From assembly GCF_055900595.2 (NCBI RefSeq), contig NZ_CM148325.1: a stretch of DNA of 64,000 nucleotides. One strand, given 5' to 3'. The translations under genes were made by a program, and so were the position numbers. Under the pieces are notes generated by a model. That model was given only the letters and a program-made list of their open reading frames with translations, was not told the DNA's origin and did no database searches. Shown here piece by piece: positions 18,808 through 61,300 of this stretch (the first letter of the stretch is position 1; the number at the start of each line of letters is the position of its first letter).

Positions 18808-18884
18808 GCATCCGTAGCTCAGCTGGATAGAGTACTCGGCTACGAACCGAGCGGTCGGAGGTTCGAATCCTCCCGGATGCACCA
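18808..18884 (+). tRNA. tRNA-Arg (ACG anticodon), copy 1
   Basis: 77-nt GCATCCGTAGCTCAGCTGGATAGAGTACTCGGCTACGAACCGAGCGGTCGGAGGTTCGAATCCTCCCGGATGCACCA. Confidence 0.92.
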
Positions 18885-18946
18885 TATTCTACGAAATCTT
18901 CAGCAATGAAGGTGTCGAAGAGGTGGCGGTACTAACCGCAAGCACC

Positions 18947-51030: not shown

Positions 51031-52122
<1,092 letters not shown>

Positions 52123-52342
52123 TTATTGTGATCAAAAGCAACAAATTAGTAACATTTAATGAAGGGTATTAAGGCAAAGGAGACAGGAAATGAATAACTA
52201 AAGCAACAGGTTAGGGAGAGCTACCATCAGAGAACAGATTATCTGGTCGATAAAAAACAGTAAATGGCTTCACTGCAAAATGACCGTTAGTAAACTAAAC
52301 ATATCATCTGCCCCGTTTTAGCGGGGCAGATATAACATTAAA

Positions 52343-54595
52343 TTACAAATAGAAATAGTTCGGCGGTTCTCCTGTTTTCCCTAAAAGAAGAGCGCTGCGC
52401 CCAGGAATATTGATATTTAGAGCTCCGCCTCTAAGCGTAAATACTTTACCAGGGGGAATACTTTTGCGTGTATTATTATTATTAATGGTAACGCTATTAC
52501 TCCCCATGTTTTTATATATTCCTGGTTGCAATTTGTTAGGCCAGGTACCTTCAACTTCTTCGTTTCCTTTATTTATTATAACTAGTCCATCATGAGGAGA
52601 GTGATTAATGTTCACAGAATCCCCACGACTAAAGGCCAGAACATTTTTAGTTGCAAATACACCCTCAAATGCGCTCCATATTCCTTCTTTATCTATATAT
52701 AATGCGTGGAATTCATTGTAGAGCTGCTGATAGGTAGAGCAACCTTTATTAAGCCACGCCTCACCGCCGACACGAGTGGACCCATCATCATTTTTAATCT
52801 CAGTCGTTGATTTTAATACCTGACCATCCCAGTAAACTAAAGGCCTGCTGAACGGGAGAGCGGCCATATATGCCATTGCTAATTGTTCATCTTGCTGATG
52901 GTTAAATAAAAAGTCATTGAAAAGATTACCATTGTTAGGGAAATCGTGGTTGATGTTAATCAATATCCGTCTTTCTGATGGGATGCTTGAGATTGCGGAA
53001 CCCGGTTTTGATGCAAGGGTTTGGAGATCTCCACCGAATGAAAAGGCTTGTATCGTCTTCATGAGCAATGAAAAATCAATGGCGCTTAAATCATCTCTTT
53101 CATAAAGCAGCGATGACATTTGTTGTTCATCTAACGGACAAGTTACCAGGTATTCCATGTAATTCATAACAGCTTTTTTTTGATATTTTGGATTAAATAA
53201 ATTTGTATTGTGCAACCGCTCATTATAATTTTTAAGCGGTGGGGTTATCGACCTCTCTATTTGTTCATGTTTTGAGTGTTTTGCTGCATCATAACGTAAA
53301 CCTCGTACGCCATATTTTCGCATTTCACGAACGTATTGATTTTGCAACATAATAACCTGGTCACTTTTGGGTGTTGTTTTAGGCATTCCATTTAAACGCT
53401 TTTCTTTTAATGCATGGAGGTTTTCCCATTCATCCTTAGAAATATTATCTTTACTTGCTTCGAAGTCTTTTGCAGTGAGATGTATATCTTCTGGATGGAT
53501 TTGGTCACGTTCTTTTGTTACTGGATCTATAATAAAGGGAATCAAGACCTGACCTTGCCAATAGCCAGGGATACCACTTTCTATATCTTTACTAATCTTC
53601 GCTCGTATATCGGCAGAGGGATAATCCAGATCATTTTTACCACTACCCCCGATTCCCATAAAGTTAAATGTATAATCAGGAATGATATCGATGCCAAATT
53701 TTTTGGCATCTTTAACCAATGCGATAAAATCCTGCAAATCTCCCATTGGATTATGGATGGTACAAAGATCTTCGGGTTGATAAGCGTGATACCAGTAACC
53801 TTTTTCTTCTTCAGGTGTTTCTGGTCCGTCGGCGCGGAAAGTTGTTACGGGAGGGATTTGTATATAACCATAATGGCAACGTGCAAACTCGGCCATATTT
53901 TTCCTGATTTGCTGGTAGGTGGCATTAAAAGCATGAAGAATCGCCTCGCCAGGTTTTTTGGGTGTGATGATTTCACATTGTGATTTCTGATCAGCAGTAA
54001 GAGATTTACGCTCAAGTGTTTGCCGTAGATGTTCTGGATTGATTAATATTTTAAATGTTTCTTGCTGGCCGGAAGGTGACGTTACGTTAATATTATATAC
54101 ATCAGCTGCCAGTTCATAGTCAGGAATGTTAATAGCATATGCAACATACTTATCTTTTGGAGACGGTTTGTCAGATATAATGTGAGTGAAATGTTCAGCT
54201 GGACCATACTGATGAACACCGCTGTTATCACCTCTTTCAATCATTGTATCTCGTTGATAAACCCATGTTTTTCCTTCTCCTATCCTGTCTGGCGCTGTAA
54301 TGCTACGCTGTGCTGCTTTATTCAACTCTCGGTAAGTTGTATCTGGAAAAAGGGAAATTTTATAATCGTTTTTTAACAGATCATTAATGACTTTTTCTGC
54401 GTGAAAAGTTGATATAATTTCTCTGTCTTTTAAATCCTGAGGATAAACTCCACAAGAATTAATAATATTTGTTATACAGTTCAGATATTCTAATGTATTT
54501 AATTTGGAATTTAGATCCCCGTCAGTAATGTTCCATGATAACAATGTGGGGTTGTCGATAGGTAAATTTCTTGGTCCTGGTTTTATAGAAAACAT
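52343..54595 (-). CDS. ygaQ: Uncharacterized 750-aa protein YgaQ (apparently intact); weak resemblance to GH13 alpha-amylase catalytic-region motifs
   Basis: Uninterrupted AT-rich ORF between csiD and tRNA-ileY; FGIDIIPDYTFNFMG segment is GH13-like but the function call is low-confidence. Confidence 0.6.
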   Translation of the reverse strand: MFSIKPGPRNLPIDNPTLLSWNITDGDLNSKLNTLEYLNCITNIINSCGVYPQDLKDREIISTFHAEKVINDLLKNDYKISLFPDTTYRELNKAAQRSITAPDRIGEGKTWVYQRDTMIERGDNSGVHQYGPAEHFTHIISDKPSPKDKYVAYAINIPDYELAADVYNINVTSPSGQQETFKILINPEHLRQTLERKSLTADQKSQCEIITPKKPGEAILHAFNATYQQIRKNMAEFARCHYGYIQIPPVTTFRADGPETPEEEKGYWYHAYQPEDLCTIHNPMGDLQDFIALVKDAKKFGIDIIPDYTFNFMGIGGSGKNDLDYPSADIRAKISKDIESGIPGYWQGQVLIPFIIDPVTKERDQIHPEDIHLTAKDFEASKDNISKDEWENLHALKEKRLNGMPKTTPKSDQVIMLQNQYVREMRKYGVRGLRYDAAKHSKHEQIERSITPPLKNYNERLHNTNLFNPKYQKKAVMNYMEYLVTCPLDEQQMSSLLYERDDLSAIDFSLLMKTIQAFSFGGDLQTLASKPGSAISSIPSERRILININHDFPNNGNLFNDFLFNHQQDEQLAMAYMAALPFSRPLVYWDGQVLKSTTEIKNDDGSTRVGGEAWLNKGCSTYQQLYNEFHALYIDKEGIWSAFEGVFATKNVLAFSRGDSVNINHSPHDGLVIINKGNEEVEGTWPNKLQPGIYKNMGSNSVTINNNNTRKSIPPGKVFTLRGGALNINIPGRSALLLGKTGEPPNYFYL

Positions 54596-55154
54596 AATAA
54601 AGTTCCTCTAATGGTAGAGTAATATGGTGTATACGGAAACATAAAAATGTTTAATTGTTGTGAAAGTAATTGCAAACAGATGTCCTACTTTTATCCAATA
54701 TTTATATGGAAAAGGATAATGCTTAAATCTGTTTTTTTAATTATCGATGTGGTCTGGAGAGGCAACTGTCAAAAATCGCTCATACGAAACTAATGATTAG
54801 CAGAATAAGATCTATGAAAGAATATATTGCTATATGAAGTTTATTTTTATGGGGTGAAAAGTAACAGATATCATAATGATGCGAAAACTCTTCAGCTAAT
54901 GTAATAAAGTTATATTATTAGATACAAAATCATTACAAACTATCATTGAATCGATGGTAACTATAAATAGTGCTAAGTATTAGCATTTGCTTGTTGACTG
55001 AGAGTATCGACTTTGTGAATGGAAGCGGTGTCGGGTTTTATGTCGCAGGTAATGACGACCCAGGATGAATGAGAACGCATAAAAATCTGTTATTTACATC
55101 ATAAGATCATCATGTTTATTGCGTGGTTTATAAGTATTGTTATTGCATACTCAA

Positions 55155-55230
55155 GGCCCTTTAGCTCAGTGGTTAGAGCAGACGACTCATAATCGCCTGG
55201 TCGCTGGTTCAAGTCCAGCAAGGGCCACCA
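55155..55230 (+). tRNA. ileY: tRNA-Ile2 (CAT anticodon, lysidine-type)
   Basis: 76-nt GGCCCTTTAGCTCAGTGGTTAGAGCAGACGACTCATAATCGCCTGGTCGCTGGTTCAAGTCCAGCAAGGGCCACCA; identity as Ile2 rather than Met inferred from genomic position. Confidence 0.85.
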
Positions 55231-56054
55231 AATCAGCATTCACGTATCAGGAAGAGTTAAGGGTACAAGGGGTACTCGATGGCGGTCTATATTTCACGAC
55301 TAACGCCATTTCAAGGAAGAAGTGTGGTGGGTGGTTTCGAATGAGGGCTGGTGTTTTGGTACGTGGCACGCCACTGCAATGTATTTATCCATCAGTACTC
55401 ATTCAAAAGTACCTGGAAAAAATGCCCGCTATGCCAAGCGGGCAAATTGCTTACATGTGGAATTAAGTAATTAACGATAAAGCCAGAGTATTATCATTTA
55501 TTATACCCATTCATTTAATCAGGTTAATTACTCAAATCACTGAACTATTCTCTGTTCGCTCACTTATGCTGAGTGAGTACCACGACCAATGTATGTAGAA
55601 CAATGCCGTAGAGTAAGGATGAAATGTCTCTGCCACGCCTTAAACATCTACTACTGACTAGAACCGCCGTCGCATGCAGAAGAGTCTTGTGAGCGTTACA
55701 GGAGTCTGGCTTTGCTCATTAATCAACGCTATTTAGATATAAATTTCTAATACTCGAAAAACGATTTTCACAAATAAATTATAACGGGTGGTTTTTATCA
55801 TACAGCGAAATAACCTTTTGTTTATTAAATTTAACATTCCTGTGCTAAATTAATTAAAAGTACCATGTGTAGCATATGAAGCTGTTAATGCCAGCAATTG
55901 TCTCAAATGAGCGATTTTTTATAGTGACAAACAATAATAACATTAAAAATAGTCATGTAGACATTAACTGAGGAAAAGACAATGTTAGTTAGTAATTAAC
56001 ACTAGCACATTTATAAATAGTGGAAATTGTAATGAAAGAAAATCTTCTAAATCC

Positions 56055-57425
56055 ATGGAGTTACTAGCTTATAGTATTATAAAATTAATTTGTAAAGAAG
56101 CTGCCTCAGGGACGTATAACGGTGCTCTTGAAATTTTACAAAAAATGATGTCTGAATGTAAATATCATGAAGGCAATGCTTTTGTCATTATGGGAGCCGG
56201 AGAACAATTAAAACGTATTAAATATGATGCTAATGAAAATAAATTAAAAGTAAACAACGTACACTTTGATAATAATCAAGAGTTAGTTGCTGATGGTGAG
56301 CCTGACGTAGTATTTTTAAAAAAAACGGTGTGGGAAGACCTTCTCGTTAAACTAAAGCTGGAGAACAAAGAAAATGCGGTTTCTGAAATTAACCTGTCAT
56401 CTAATAAAAATAATGTTGATCAGTTTATTGAATGCGCTAAGAGAAATGAACAGACCCTATTCGACAATATAAGAAAAAGTGATTTTCATGTTGCTTCACT
56501 TCAGCCAGGTAGAACGCGTAGTGTTATTTCAGAAACGCCGCCAAATGACTGTATGGAATCACCTAATTTATATGAAAACCACACAGATAAGGTTTCAACT
56601 GTAACTAAAAATTCTCAGCAAGTTAAAGGTCACTATGGAGATAAGTTGAAAGAAATGCAGTTGTTCCTCAACCAGATGAGCAATGCACTTCAACAGGATT
56701 CATCTTTGTTAGAGTCAAAGGAACACACCATAGATATTCAAGAAAAAACGAATAAGTTTGTGCAGCATTTTCAGCGGGTATTATTTGATAAAAATGGAAG
56801 GTCATCAGAGTTTCTACTTAATTTTTATGAGTGTTGCTATAAGTTTTTACCAAGAGCGCAGCCTCAAGATAAAATCGATAGCTATAATTCAGCACTGCAA
56901 GCTTTTTCCATCTTTTGTTCATCTACGTTGACACATAATAATGTAGGGTTTAATTTCAAATTATTTCCAGAAGTCAAGCTGTCTGGAGGAGATCTTGAAA
57001 CGGTATTCAAATACAAAAATGGCAATTTTGTCTGGGAGATAGCCAGAATTAAAATTACTCTCCCAAAAGAAGAGGGTGGTTTATATAATTTAGGTGGATT
57101 GGACTTTAAGGGGTGCTTCTTTTCTGGACAGAACTTCAGTAACTATGATATTAAATATGTGAACTGGGGGACGTCATTGTTTGATGTTGATACTCCGTGT
57201 ATTTTTAATACGCCTGCTAACAATGAGAGTTATGAAAAATCATTAAAGCCTGTGAGCGAAAACGGTTTAAATGGAGTCTTATCTGATCGTAATAAAAAAA
57301 TAAAAATGATCACGGGCGTGGCACCATTCGATGGTATTTCATCTATGGATGATGACTTTGATGATAGTTCCTCTGAGGATGAGCCCGTTGAGAATAGTCC
57401 TGTTGTGACTAGGCCCCTTGTATAA
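56055..57425 (+). CDS. Hypothetical 456-aa protein, very AT-rich, with pentapeptide-repeat-like segment and acidic Asp/Glu/Ser-rich C-terminal tail (occupies the ypjB/ypjC-like position)
   Basis: Long uninterrupted ORF in an AT-rich island; LYNLGGLDFKGCFFSGQNFSNYDIKYVNW repeat-like block; tail SSMDDDFDDSSSEDEPVENS. Confidence 0.55.
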   Translation: MELLAYSIIKLICKEAASGTYNGALEILQKMMSECKYHEGNAFVIMGAGEQLKRIKYDANENKLKVNNVHFDNNQELVADGEPDVVFLKKTVWEDLLVKLKLENKENAVSEINLSSNKNNVDQFIECAKRNEQTLFDNIRKSDFHVASLQPGRTRSVISETPPNDCMESPNLYENHTDKVSTVTKNSQQVKGHYGDKLKEMQLFLNQMSNALQQDSSLLESKEHTIDIQEKTNKFVQHFQRVLFDKNGRSSEFLLNFYECCYKFLPRAQPQDKIDSYNSALQAFSIFCSSTLTHNNVGFNFKLFPEVKLSGGDLETVFKYKNGNFVWEIARIKITLPKEEGGLYNLGGLDFKGCFFSGQNFSNYDIKYVNWGTSLFDVDTPCIFNTPANNESYEKSLKPVSENGLNGVLSDRNKKIKMITGVAPFDGISSMDDDFDDSSSEDEPVENSPVVTRPLV

Positions 57426-57741
57426 AGTTCTAAAAGCAGTTTTCAATGATAAATAAATGGCGATTTTTACAAAGAGATAATAACGTAGATTGAAATAATA
57501 TGTATTATTGATTGAGTAAACGGGATTATTCTTCACACTGCATCCATTTTGCTGTCACTACCAAAGTAAAAGGGGCCACGCTTTCACGTAACCCCTTGAT
57601 TTATTTGATAAGTTTGCGGTGTCTGAACTGGTGCTGTAATTGGTTGAAATATTTCATCTAATGTCTGGTTCAACTTTCCTTAGCTGCCTGAAAGTTTTTT
57701 TGATATTACCCATCAATAATAGGGTGACGGTGTACCACGCC

Positions 57742-57960
57742 TGACTGATGAACTGCGTGCTCAGAGTTACCACTTCAGCGCATAACCGTGGCAGCAGGCC
57801 CGGACAGAACAAACGGCTCAGGACATTATCGGTAGGGGACGTACTGGTAGTCTGTAAACTAAACCGACTGGGGCGCAGTATGCGGCATCTTGCCGTGCTG
57901 TTGGAGGAGCTGTGAGAACGTGGTATTAACTTTCGTGCTCTGACTCTACCAATATTTGCC
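57742..57960 (+). pseudogene. pinH: Serine recombinase (Pin/Hin-type DNA invertase) fragment with in-frame TGA and no intact N- or C-terminus
   Basis: Translation ...RPGQNKRLRTLSVGDVLVVCKLNRLGRSMRHLAVLLEEL*ERGINFRALT matches the conserved GDxLVVxKLDRLGRS...ERGxxFxxLT resolvase core; TGA at 57913-57915. Confidence 0.7.
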
Positions 57961-58352
57961 CAACAATGGGGGGACGAAAGCTGTAAAAGTAAAACAATCT
58001 GCAATCTCAATATTATTGTGTGATTTTTATGTGAGCAGAAGATATTCATCAGAAACGATTATGTAAATCATTTTATTTTTCCGACGGCTTCAATGTCGAA
58101 AGAAAAGAATACGCCCGTATTTCCTGAATAGATTGACTTTTTTATCCAACCACACTTCAGCGCACTGCGTTTAAAAAATGCCTCTTTCTTATGCGGAATA
58201 TCATCATTTCATCATGATGTCTTTGATGAGCGGTGAACACAATACACTTGCGCTGTCTCTTCAGGATTAATCCCCTGGTCTGGTGCCTGTGGGCTGATGT
58301 TGCAGCAGAGCTAAGGTTGCTTAAACGCTACTCAGTATTCACTTTTCAGAGG

Positions 58353-61300
58353 ATGAAATTTATGAACAGGACCAGTCCCCATTATTGTCGTCGCTCAGTA
58401 CTTTCCTTACTGATATCTGCCTTGATATATGCTCCGCCCGGGATGGCGGCCTTTACCTCTAATGTTATTGGTGTGGTAAACGATGAGACTGTAGATGGTA
58501 GCCAAAAAGTAGATGAACGAGGTACAACAAATAACACTCATATTATCAACCACGGTTATCAGGATGTTTATGGCGGGGTATCTAATGGAAGTATTATTGA
58601 ATCTGGTGGCCGTCAATATGTATCAGCCAATGGTACTCATCAGGGGCAGGCCAATAATACAGTCATTAACGGTGGCAGCCAGACAATTCTGGACGGGGGA
58701 ATTTCCACAGGGACGATAATCCAGAGTGGCAGTCAGTATGTTTATGCAGGTGGTACCAGTAATGCAACAACGATAATAAGCGGTCGTTCAACAGTAATGG
58801 GGGGAACTGCGAATGGAACAATAATTAATGGTGGGAGCCAGTCAGTATCGAGTCAGGGGCGTGTTGACGGTACGACGATAAATATGTCCGGGCATCAGGA
58901 GATTACGCAAGGAAGTCTGGCAACGAACACAACAATAGATGGGGGGTGGCAGTATGTGGACTCAAGCAGTGTAGAAAATACTACCATTAAGAATGGAGGC
59001 GAGCAAAGAACAGTTAAGAGCCATGCGCTGAACACCACAATAGATGGTGGTCTACAGGTTGTCGATTCAAGTACCGCAGAAATAACCACCATTAAGAGTG
59101 GAGGAACGCAACAATTAAATAACAGCCAGGCTATGTTCACCACGATTGAAGGCGGAACTCAGTCTATGAATAGTAAGTCAACGGCAAAAAATACTCAGAT
59201 CTATTCTGGTGGTACGCAAATTGTTGATAACACCAGCACCTCGGATGTTATTGAAATTTATTCCGGTGGCGTGCTTGATGTTAGAGGTGGTATGGCAACA
59301 AATGTTACTCAGCACGATGGCGCGGCTTTAAAAGCAATGACTGACTGGTCGACGGTGAGCGGTACGAATAGTGAAGGTGCATTCTCTATTCACAATAACG
59401 TGGCAGACAATGTGTTGCTGGAAAACGGTGGCCATTTAGACGTATATGGTTCGGCAAACAAGACGATTATTAAAGATAAAGGAACAATGTCAGTTTTAGC
59501 GAATGCTAAAGCTGATGCGACCCGAATAGATAATGGCGGGGTTATGGATGTTGCCGGAAACGCGACCAATACCATAATTAATGGTGGCACACAGAATATA
59601 AATAATCATGGTATTGCCACGGGAACCAATATCAACAGCGGAACACAAAATATCAAGAGCGGCGGGAAAGCTGACACGACAAATATCTCCTCCGGGAGCC
59701 GGCAGGTTGTTGAGAAAGATGGTACGGCAACTGGCAGCAATATTAGCACCGGAGGCTCGCTGATTGTCTATACCGGTGGTATCGCACATGGGGTTAACCA
59801 GGAGACGGGCAGTGCTTTAGTTGCCAACACGGGCGCAGGGACTGATATTGAAGGATACAACAAGCTCTCTCACTTCACTATTACCGGAGGGGAGGCTAAT
59901 TATGTTGTGCTGGAAAATACCGGCGAACTGACGGTAGTGGCTAAAACCACGGCGAAAAATACTACCGTTGATGCCGGCGGTAAGCTGATTGTCCAGAAGG
60001 AGGCTAAAACAGATACCACCAGACTTAATAATGGTGGCGTTCTGGAGGTTCAGGACGGTGGTGAGGCTAAGCATGTTGAGCAACAATCCGGCGGCGCATT
60101 AATTGCTTCCACGACTTCCGGAACACTTATCGAAGGAACCAACAGTTATGGTGATGCTTTCTACATCAGGAATTCAGAAGCTAAAAATGTAGTGCTGGAA
60201 AACGCTGGCTCATTAACAGTCGTTACTGGTTCCCGGGCAGTTGATACGATTATTAATGCCAACGGCAAAATGGATGTTTATGGAAAAGATGTTGGCACTG
60301 TACTCAATAGTGCGGGCACCCAAACAATATATGCCAGTGCCACTTCTGATAAAGCAAATATCAAAGGTGGCAAGCAAACGGTATATGGTTTAGCCACTGA
60401 GGCAAATATCGAAAGTGGTGAACAAATTGTTGATGGTGGGTCAACAGATAAAACGCACATCAAAGGCGGCACGCAAACCGTTCAGAATTATGGTAAGGCG
60501 ATCAATACCGATATCGTCTCTGGCCTGCAACAAATTATGGCAAACGGGACAGCGGAAGGTTCCATTATTAATGGCGGTTCACAGGTAGTTAATGAGGGCG
60601 GTCTGGCTGAAAACTCGGTACTTAATGACGGCGGCACACTCGATGTGCGGGAGAAAGGCAGCGCTACGGGGATACAGCAGAGTAGCCAGGGCGCGCTGGT
60701 GGCAACCACCAGGGCGACGCGGGTCACAGGGACACGCGCTGATGGCGTCGCGTTCAGCATCGAGCAGGATGCGGCGAACAATATCCTGCTGGCAAATGGC
60801 GGCGTGTTAACCGTGGAGTCAGACACCACTTCCGCCAAAACACAGGTCAATGCGGGCGGACGGGAGATCGTCAAAACAAAAGCCACTGCGACTGGCACGA
60901 TGCTTACCGGCGGTGAACAAATCGTCGAGGGTGTGGCGAATGAGACAACGATTAACGACGGCGGAATACAAACAGTTTCGGCTAACGGTGAGGCAGTAAA
61001 AACAACGATTAATGAAGGCGGTACGCTGACAGTCAACGATAATGGCAAAGCGACAGATATCATCCAGAACAGCGGTGCCGCTCTCCAGACGAGCACGGCT
61101 AACGGTATTGAAATCAGCGGTACTCACCAGTATGGCACCTTTTCCATTGCCGGAAATTTAGCGACCAATGTGCTGCTGGAAAATGGCGGTAATTTATTGG
61201 TATTAGCAGGTACCGAAGCTCGCGATTCCACGGTTGGCAACGGTGGGGCAATGCAAAACCTGGGTCAGGACTTCGCCACAAAGGTTAATTCCGGTGGGCA

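Follow-up and report, generated by a model that had tools for sequence, protein, structure and literature searches.

The 456-codon open reading frame (ORF) between tRNA ileY and a recombinase gene remnant is a real and already catalogued gene, ypjCB, which belongs to a known family without assigned function. In the DNA studied here an 11-bp deletion has separated the canonical start from the rest of the frame. We consider it probable that the ORF is a start-less allele of a gene confined to E. coli and Shigella, and that this gene evolves close to neutrality and has been lost repeatedly. The most conserved segment of the YpjCB protein is a short pentapeptide-like block, whose periodicity is beyond chance.

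Genomic context and identity of the ORF

The window, i.e. the whole stretch of 64,000 nucleotides that was analysed, is a segment of the E. coli chromosome. Its gene order was established from ORF and RNA calls and from the annotated genome of a strain that is 99.9% identical (Table 1); in that strain the fragment downstream of the ORF is labelled "recombinase family protein, incomplete" (L001, 8788-8913). The tRNA upstream of the ORF was called Met-CAT by ARAGORN and Ile by PGAP. Both flanks, the tRNA and the recombinase fragment, had been recognized in a preliminary description of this DNA. The surrounding AT-rich block contains ygaQ, ileY, ypjCB and the recombinase fragment, and is flanked by glaH and ypjA. 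On the ypjCB side, the block is bounded on the left by ileY.

Table 1. Coordinates of the features in the window
Feature	Position	Strand	Evidence or remark
gabD-lhgO-glaH	left part of window, before ygaQ		
AT-rich block, ~6 kb, GC 36.9%	52114-58232	none	composition profile; synteny in 14 genomes
ygaQ	52343-54595	-	
tRNA ileY, anticodon CAT, Ile2	55155-55230	+	ARAGORN; Rfam tRNA, 67 bits; PGAP "tRNA-Ile" in relatives
Canonical start remnant of ypjCB	55970-55999	+	sequence read, translation, DNA alignment
Residual ypjCB ORF, 456 codons + stop	56055-57425	+	ORF list; NF050179 profile positions 29-465
DUF5507 region (PF17612), aa 1-132	56055-56450	+	E = 1.8e-64; model positions 29-160 of 160
DUF5508 region (PF17621), aa 206-456	56670-57422	+	E = 1.3e-142
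Pentapeptide-repeat-like block, 7 pentads, aa 344-378 of ORF	57084-57188	+	shuffle test; pN
Acidic Ser/Asp/Glu-rich C-terminal tail, predicted disordered	57339-57422	+	translation; pLDDT < 30
Serine recombinase gene fragment (pinH remnant)	~57787-57912	+	PGAP annotation in 99.9%-identical strain; ORF 57748-57915
ypjA, autotransporter gene	58233-63035		
ssrA	63196-63557		

The ORF has a GC content of 35.2% (GC3 30.9%) against 50.5% for the window, and its product is rich in Asn (9.2%), Leu (9.0%), Lys (8.8%), Ser (8.3%) and Glu (7.7%), in agreement with the low GC and the Lys/Asn/Glu-rich composition reported earlier. The AT-rich block around ypjCB is probably old DNA of foreign origin. A horizontal origin of the gene, as proposed in the preliminary description, is plausible because of its low GC and its one fixed chromosomal position beside ileY, where the integration of elements with the ter operon is documented (PMC8193136); the patchy occurrence of the locus described below is in line with it.

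The ORF product scored 912 bits (E = 7.5e-275) with the NCBIfam model NF050179 ("YpjCB family protein", an "exception" model), whose curated cutoff is 650 bits for the whole protein. The NCBIfam and the Pfam matches alike begin at model position 29. The score, the DUF5507 plus DUF5508 architecture and the syntenic position all place the ORF in the YpjCB family; in the window, however, the frame is incomplete at its 5' end, profile positions 1-28 being absent. The product aligns with the family throughout and shares 94% identity with the most frequent of the 484-aa alleles. The order ileY, ypjCB, recombinase remnant/ypjA was identical in 14 annotated genomes, and carrier genomes annotate the gene as ypjCB or as "DUF5507 domain-containing protein". 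The window ORF is unlike the family in that its first 28 residues have been removed by the frameshift. The K-12 allele is broken instead by a nonsense codon at position 161 (CAG-to-TAG), and the K-12 and O157 alleles both miss 35 residues through an in-frame 105-bp deletion. K-12 ypjCB is thus a pseudogene with an internal stop, split into ypjC (b2650) and ypjB (b2649); the suspected link of the ORF to the ypjB/ypjC pseudogene was therefore right, and the two are the same gene.

A 5' frameshift cuts the ORF off from the canonical start

The canonical start of the family lies 28 codons upstream of position 56055. Family proteins in the databases are mostly 484 aa long with the N-terminus MLVSKSNEINTSTF, and the canonical N-terminal segment MLVSKSNEINTSTFINSGNCNERKSSKS is followed by MELLAYS... 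at Met29. A remnant of this start is preserved in the window. It consists of GAGGA at 55970-55974, an ATG at 55982 and four canonical codons, followed after the junction 55993/55994 by AAT TAA. Reading from this ATG gives ATG TTA GTT AGT AAT TAA, which encodes MLVSN and a stop. DNA alignment with four other strains revealed an 11-bp deletion directly after codon 4, which is common only to the closest relative, and the same gap appeared at nt 15-25 in an alignment of 16 sequences. Owing to this deletion, the 456-codon ORF begins at the family's internal Met29, a residue that is invariant across the aligned alleles. No further lesion was found in the ORF downstream of the deletion. No allele has a Shine-Dalgarno sequence before Met29, and all have GAGGA before the canonical ATG. 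The preliminary description had taken the ORF for an intact gene of 456 aa. An ATG-to-stop frame of that length does exist on the plus strand, but the gene is not intact because it is frameshifted after codon 4.

The NCBI pipeline treats a near-identical allele as a normal gene encoding a 476-aa protein with an ATT start at 55995. Since this ATT is 22 nt from the sole ribosome-binding site, we attribute it to a choice of start that was guided by the model and consider it an artefact. A diagnostic 60-mer detected the deletion allele in 8 of 5,426 complete E. coli genomes, and this rarity indicates that the lesion is recent. We infer that the window carries a recently inactivated copy, which is at most poorly translated into an N-terminally truncated product. 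Most likely the allele is non-functional, or at best weakly expressed as a truncated protein. The appropriate annotation is a 5'-frameshifted ypjCB allele and not an intact gene; its rescue by an ATT start is implausible.

Distribution of ypjCB

The locus, scored as carried when at least 80% of the 3.3-kb region was present, was found in 3,020 of 5,426 complete E. coli genomes (~56%), always in the chromosome, and was absent from the other ~44% (~2,400 genomes). A HMMER search of 1.84 billion representative proteins with a profile built from seven family members returned one full-length cluster, from E. coli and Shigella, together with some 45 fragments that belong to the family. Two other hits were rejected as spurious. 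One is a repetitive adhesin-like protein of 3,960 aa, in which the repeat SNYSISYVNAPTGLTV weakly resembles SNYDIKYVNWGTSLFDV and the summed score is inflated by 12 separate matches. The other is an unrelated protein of 1,316 aa. A one-genome-per-species scan of 100,044 species, a weak negative by itself with its two exact peptide patterns, returned a single 2.8-kb contig from a metagenome bin. This contig holds the K-12-type allele including the stop at codon 161, and is therefore probably E. coli contamination.

No match to ypjCB was found by tblastn among 50,697 phage records. Four matches were filed as plasmids. Three of these are chromosome-sized E. coli records (4.8-4.9 Mb); the fourth, a 245-kb E. 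coli plasmid, matches only 32% of the query, at 60.6% identity. The PHROG family phrog_30093, whose function is unassigned, matches the ypjCB product over its full length. The sequence searches confirm the orphan status claimed earlier, and at the species level ypjCB is a true orphan of E. coli and Shigella.

Allelic states and evolutionary regime

We examined 14 non-redundant gene-bearing genomes, evenly spaced down the similarity ranking. The gene was intact with the canonical 484 aa in three genomes and intact with 449 aa in three others, O157:H7 included, which have the in-frame 105-bp deletion. In the remaining eight genomes it was disrupted by five different lesions. Two of them are nonsense mutations, CAG to TAG at codon 161 and TGT to TGA at codon 41; the other three are deletions, namely the one of 11 bp and losses of 1 bp at nt 473 and at nt 609. 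At least five independent knock-outs are thus represented in this sample. An exact 60-mer for the K-12-type TAG161 mutation was present in at least 1,236 complete genomes, i.e. at least 41% of the carriers. The census consists of the 14 sampled genomes and two diagnostic 60-mers, and its counts have no phylogeny behind them. When the TAG161 carriers are added to the ~2,400 genomes that are free of the locus, only a minority of the species is left with an intact allele. Intact alleles occur in blood and urine strains as well as in O157.

The dN/dS ratios were calculated by the Nei-Gojobori method. The median for all ypjCB pairs was 0.75, and divergent pairs (dS > 0.02) of intact alleles gave 0.64-1.0, compared with 0.13 for ygaQ, 0.05 for lhgO and 0.03 for glaH. 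High dN/dS and frequent disruption in relatives, which the preliminary description had named as evidence that would speak against its own reading, are therefore both features of this gene. The rate varies along the protein. Residues 1-28 are the fastest-evolving part with a pN/pS of 1.7; the linker at 141-207 is at about 1 and residues 29-140 are at 0.5. The pentapeptide-like block (371-415 in canonical numbering) has both the lowest pN/pS, 0.29, and the lowest pN, 0.017.

Several alleles have nevertheless been kept open. When the 116-178 observed differences between intact alleles were scattered randomly, following the substitution spectrum of the data, only 0.04-0.9% of the trials left the ORF open (P 0.0004-0.009). 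Three or more divergent lineages of alleles have therefore been kept open by selection. Residues 1-28 are open, in frame and free of indels in all DNA-aligned alleles without the deletion, despite ~22% non-synonymous divergence. The ypjCB alleles are mosaics of few sequence blocks, a pattern that points to recombination among them. Together these data fit a conditionally useful accessory gene, or a gene under diversifying selection, that many lineages have discarded. A dN/dS near 0.75, retained ORFs and mosaic alleles are also what diversifying selection, as opposed to simple decay, could produce.

Protein architecture and the pentapeptide-like block

The 456-aa product contains no hydrophobic stretch (best 19-residue Kyte-Doolittle mean 0.87), in agreement with the earlier statement that it has no signal peptide. 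The acidic Ser/Asp/Glu tail was likewise found as described, with a C-terminus ending in ...SSMDDDFDDSSSEDEPVENSPVV. The pentapeptide-repeat-like segment that had been noticed comprises seven consecutive pentads, YNLGG LDFKG CFFSG QNFSN YDIKY VNWGT SLFDV, with a hydrophobic centre in 7/7 and D/N in 5/7 according to the pattern x-(D/N)-(L/F/I/W)-x-x. Its pentad score was 13.5. Shuffled versions of the protein scored 9.0 +/- 0.8, and 6 in 20,000 attained 13.5, under a scoring scheme that was picked post hoc, after the sequence had been seen. No Pfam pentapeptide model matched even at an independent E <= 10. In a PDB sequence search the sole match was to Qnr over this block, with a non-significant E of 8.2.

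AlphaFold2 predicted the full-length protein with a pLDDT of 36, too low for a usable fold, and the DUF5507 region, at low confidence, as two helices followed by a beta-meander. For residues 234-446, modelled with 14 sequences, the mean pLDDT was 60 in one of five models, with a pTM of 0.61 and 88 residues at 70-90. In this model three helices are followed by a three-stranded beta-meander, and over the pentapeptide-like block, where the pLDDT is 62-76, a short strand recurs at intervals of five residues. The DUF5508 region is thus predicted as a three-helix bundle, a beta-meander, pentapeptide-like turns and a disordered tail. In a Foldseek search of AFDB50 the best match outside the family was a Bacteroides pentapeptide-repeat protein (E = 1.2e-5, TM 0.41/0.30). 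The fold search of solved structures in the PDB gave no match and retrieved no pentapeptide structure. The modelled strand spacing and these fold searches are the observations that bear on a right-handed quadrilateral beta-helix, the fold of pentapeptide-repeat proteins. With the proteins of the PF00805 clan, such as Qnr and MfpA, YpjCB shares the pentad pattern, here in seven units, and the predicted five-residue strand spacing. It differs from them in that the block covers only ~35-45 residues within 484 and the TM-scores are low. The block is pentapeptide-like, and the protein is not filed in the pentapeptide-repeat family. It is worth noting that a conserved mini-module of this type lies within a protein that otherwise evolves almost freely.

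Alternative explanations

The nearest alternative is that the 456-aa ORF is expressed from Met29 and works, residues 1-28 being dispensable and the 11-bp deletion harmless. The invariance of Met29, the high pN/pS of the segment before it and the undamaged remainder of the ORF would fit such a protein, as would the normal gene called by the NCBI pipeline; reinitiation after the short upstream ORF, which stops 55 nt before Met29, or an unrecognized signal is conceivable. However, the only Shine-Dalgarno sequence belongs to the canonical ATG, and the 28 codons have been kept open and indel-free wherever the deletion is absent. The deletion allele is also so rare and young that its intact remainder is uninformative about selection. 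We therefore consider translation of a working protein from Met29 unlikely. That the ORF is a chance frame in AT-rich DNA and not a gene is hardly credible. A dN/dS close to 1, frequent lesions and the lack of homologues beyond the species would be expected of such a frame, but 456-484 codons in DNA of 35% GC are very unlikely to arise by chance, divergent alleles would seldom have stayed open under random substitution, and non-synonymous change is reduced in the pentapeptide block and in residues 29-140.

Other alternatives concern what an intact protein might do. The preliminary description had likened the architecture to secreted effectors or phage-associated proteins. This comparison was not borne out, with no match in the phage records, the non-significant Qnr match at E = 8.2 as the only similarity to a solved structure and no chaperone-like ORF adjoining the gene. 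The PADLOC models of defence proteins also gave no family match at E <= 1, and none of the tests that were run supports a role as an effector, phage or defence protein. A specific form of the effector idea is that YpjCB is a type III secretion substrate like PipB/PipB2 of Salmonella or EspX of E. coli, in which the Ser/Asn/Thr-rich N-terminus would be the signal (lost in this strain) and the beta-helix a host-binding module. PipB2 and EspX resemble YpjCB in general features rather than in compared sequence: a low-GC gene in an island, a Ser/Thr/Asn-rich N-terminus, a pentapeptide-like C-terminal module, and the fast evolution and frequent pseudogenes seen in many effectors. The segment MLVSKSNEINTSTFINSGNCNERKSSKS does have few acidic residues (2 Glu, no Asp) and is predicted to be disordered. 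Against this, neither sequence nor fold searches matched an effector, the Pfam pentapeptide families remain unmatched, and no secretion or chaperone gene adjoins ypjCB, which is surrounded by a tRNA, a recombinase fragment and an autotransporter gene. Intact alleles are moreover not peculiar to O157, and secretion of the ypjC product is not reported in the examined papers that mention ypjC. We regard a type III substrate as improbable. It is more doubtful still that YpjCB could be an inhibitor of the DNA-mimic type, left over from a mobile element, that binds a DNA-handling enzyme as Qnr/MfpA or anti-restriction proteins do. Qnr as the sole solved-structure match, the strongly acidic tail and the integration hot spot would favour such a protein, but no sequence or fold match is significant, and the gene is on no extant phage and, among genuine plasmids, has only the one partial match. 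Seven to nine pentads would form about two coils, far shorter than known DNA mimics. A broader possibility, to which we also give little weight, though somewhat more than to the type III substrate, is a species-specific protein under diversifying selection whose conserved mini beta-helix of the pentapeptide type would act on a target in a host, a phage or a competitor. One example would be a substrate of a secretion system with the variable N-terminus as its export signal. If so, the repeated knock-outs would be lineages that have escaped the conflict.

Expression and possible function

Published data on this locus come from K-12. The ileY-ypjC region contains a site selected by RNA polymerase in SELEX and is a target of H-NS by genomic SELEX (PMC3946193). 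The promoter motif printed for the ileY-ypjC spacer, TTATCA-18-TTTAAT (PMC3946193), was rejected as a sense promoter in the window, where it occurs only in antisense orientation inside the ORF (56243-56272). Hha binds the ypjC region, and ypjC RNA rose 9-fold upon Hha overproduction (PMC2408971). Deletion of ypjC allowed a pathogen to colonise a K-12 biofilm slightly better, and constitutive expression was without effect (PMC3646849). We did not take this phenotype as functional evidence, because it was not reversed by constitutive expression and concerns a pseudogene fragment. No function is assigned to ypjC in PMC3946193, PMC2408971, PMC3646849 or PMC8193136.

In the reading that we prefer, a near-neutral gene that is repeatedly lost, ypjCB is conditionally useful, normally silenced by H-NS/Hha, and is disappearing. 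The ancestral product, of about 55 kDa, would have been soluble and without enzymatic activity. Its N-terminus, variable and rich in Ser/Asn/Thr, would have been joined to an alpha/beta domain, a linker that is likewise variable and a helical bundle, followed by a short beta-helical segment of the pentapeptide type and an acidic disordered tail. The pentapeptide-like segment alone is clearly constrained, so it is the likeliest working surface, and it probably binds some macromolecular partner. If the conserved module does have a partner, it should be sought among intact alleles, in O157 or TUM1226-like strains.

ypjCB was already known as a catalogued, uncharacterised and E. coli-restricted gene. 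The consequence of these findings is small and goes little beyond annotation hygiene, as ypjCB is an ordinary decaying island gene and not a new system. It is a clean case of a gene that selection keeps open in some lineages and that is near-neutral and lost in others, and may serve as a test case for the way in which orphan genes restricted to one species die out.

Flanking genes and features of the window

The table below gives the coordinates of the features described here. The glaH genes of 11 other E. coli share 95.1-100% identity among themselves; the window allele of glaH shares only 92.7-94.4% identity with them. The dS of the window allele, 0.30-0.37, is about twice that of the adjoining lhgO. 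These divergence values suggest that the window glaH allele is imported or unusually old. The neighboring ygaQ is annotated as a pseudogene in K-12, O157 and several further strains, among them the 99.9%-identical relative, owing to a frameshift or an internal stop. Despite these annotations its dN/dS is only 0.13, so purifying selection acts on the intact copies of ygaQ. The minus-strand tRNA-Arg(tcg) predicted by ARAGORN is probably a false positive within the serV-argV tRNA cluster.

Features of the window outside ypjCB
Feature	Position	Strand	Remark
tRNA-Arg(tcg)	18828-18899	-	ARAGORN; overlaps plus-strand tRNA-Arg 18808-18884
glaH/csiD	51031-52008	-	
ygaQ, alpha-amylase family	52343-54595	-	intact ORF, 750 aa
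ssrA / ypjA junction	63036-63557		ssrA directly adjoins ypjA

Alleles of ypjCB

In the strain with the near-identical locus (L001 6996-8426), the frameshifted ypjCB is annotated by NCBI as a normal 476-aa protein with an ATT start (window 55995). This ATT looks to have been picked to suit the family model rather than to be the real start. We compared the ypjCB alleles in loci L002-L015 of other E. coli genomes. An in-frame 105-bp indel at nt 624-728 of the canonical frame divides the alleles of the species into two classes, encoding 484 and 449 aa, respectively. The C-terminal blocks NAPAYNKSNEKSL, NVPDDNKSYEKLL and NTPANNESYEKSL occur shuffled across allele backgrounds, and this shuffling indicates that ypjCB alleles have recombined with one another.

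Integration at ssrA and ileY

A region of about 320 bp upstream of ypjA and extending into its start (window 57982-58300) matches a second locus, annotated as ymgJ or hypothetical, at 88-90% identity in nearly all E. coli genomes. It looks like a leader region common to two autotransporter loci. At the other end of ypjA, no CP4-57-type prophage or other integrated element is present at ssrA in the window strain; in K-12 and several sampled genomes this site carries integrases, IS elements or defence-like genes (SIR2, HNH plus AAA ATPase). The flank of ileY also differs between strains (corresponding loci L008 1-5756, L015 1-5804 and L016 9441-14582). One strain carries a P2-like prophage whose integrase adjoins ileY and another a different integrase island; a third has lost the entire ypjCB-ypjA interval, with IS3/IS1 and an integrase in its place. 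tRNA ileY is clearly an active hot spot for both integration and deletion.
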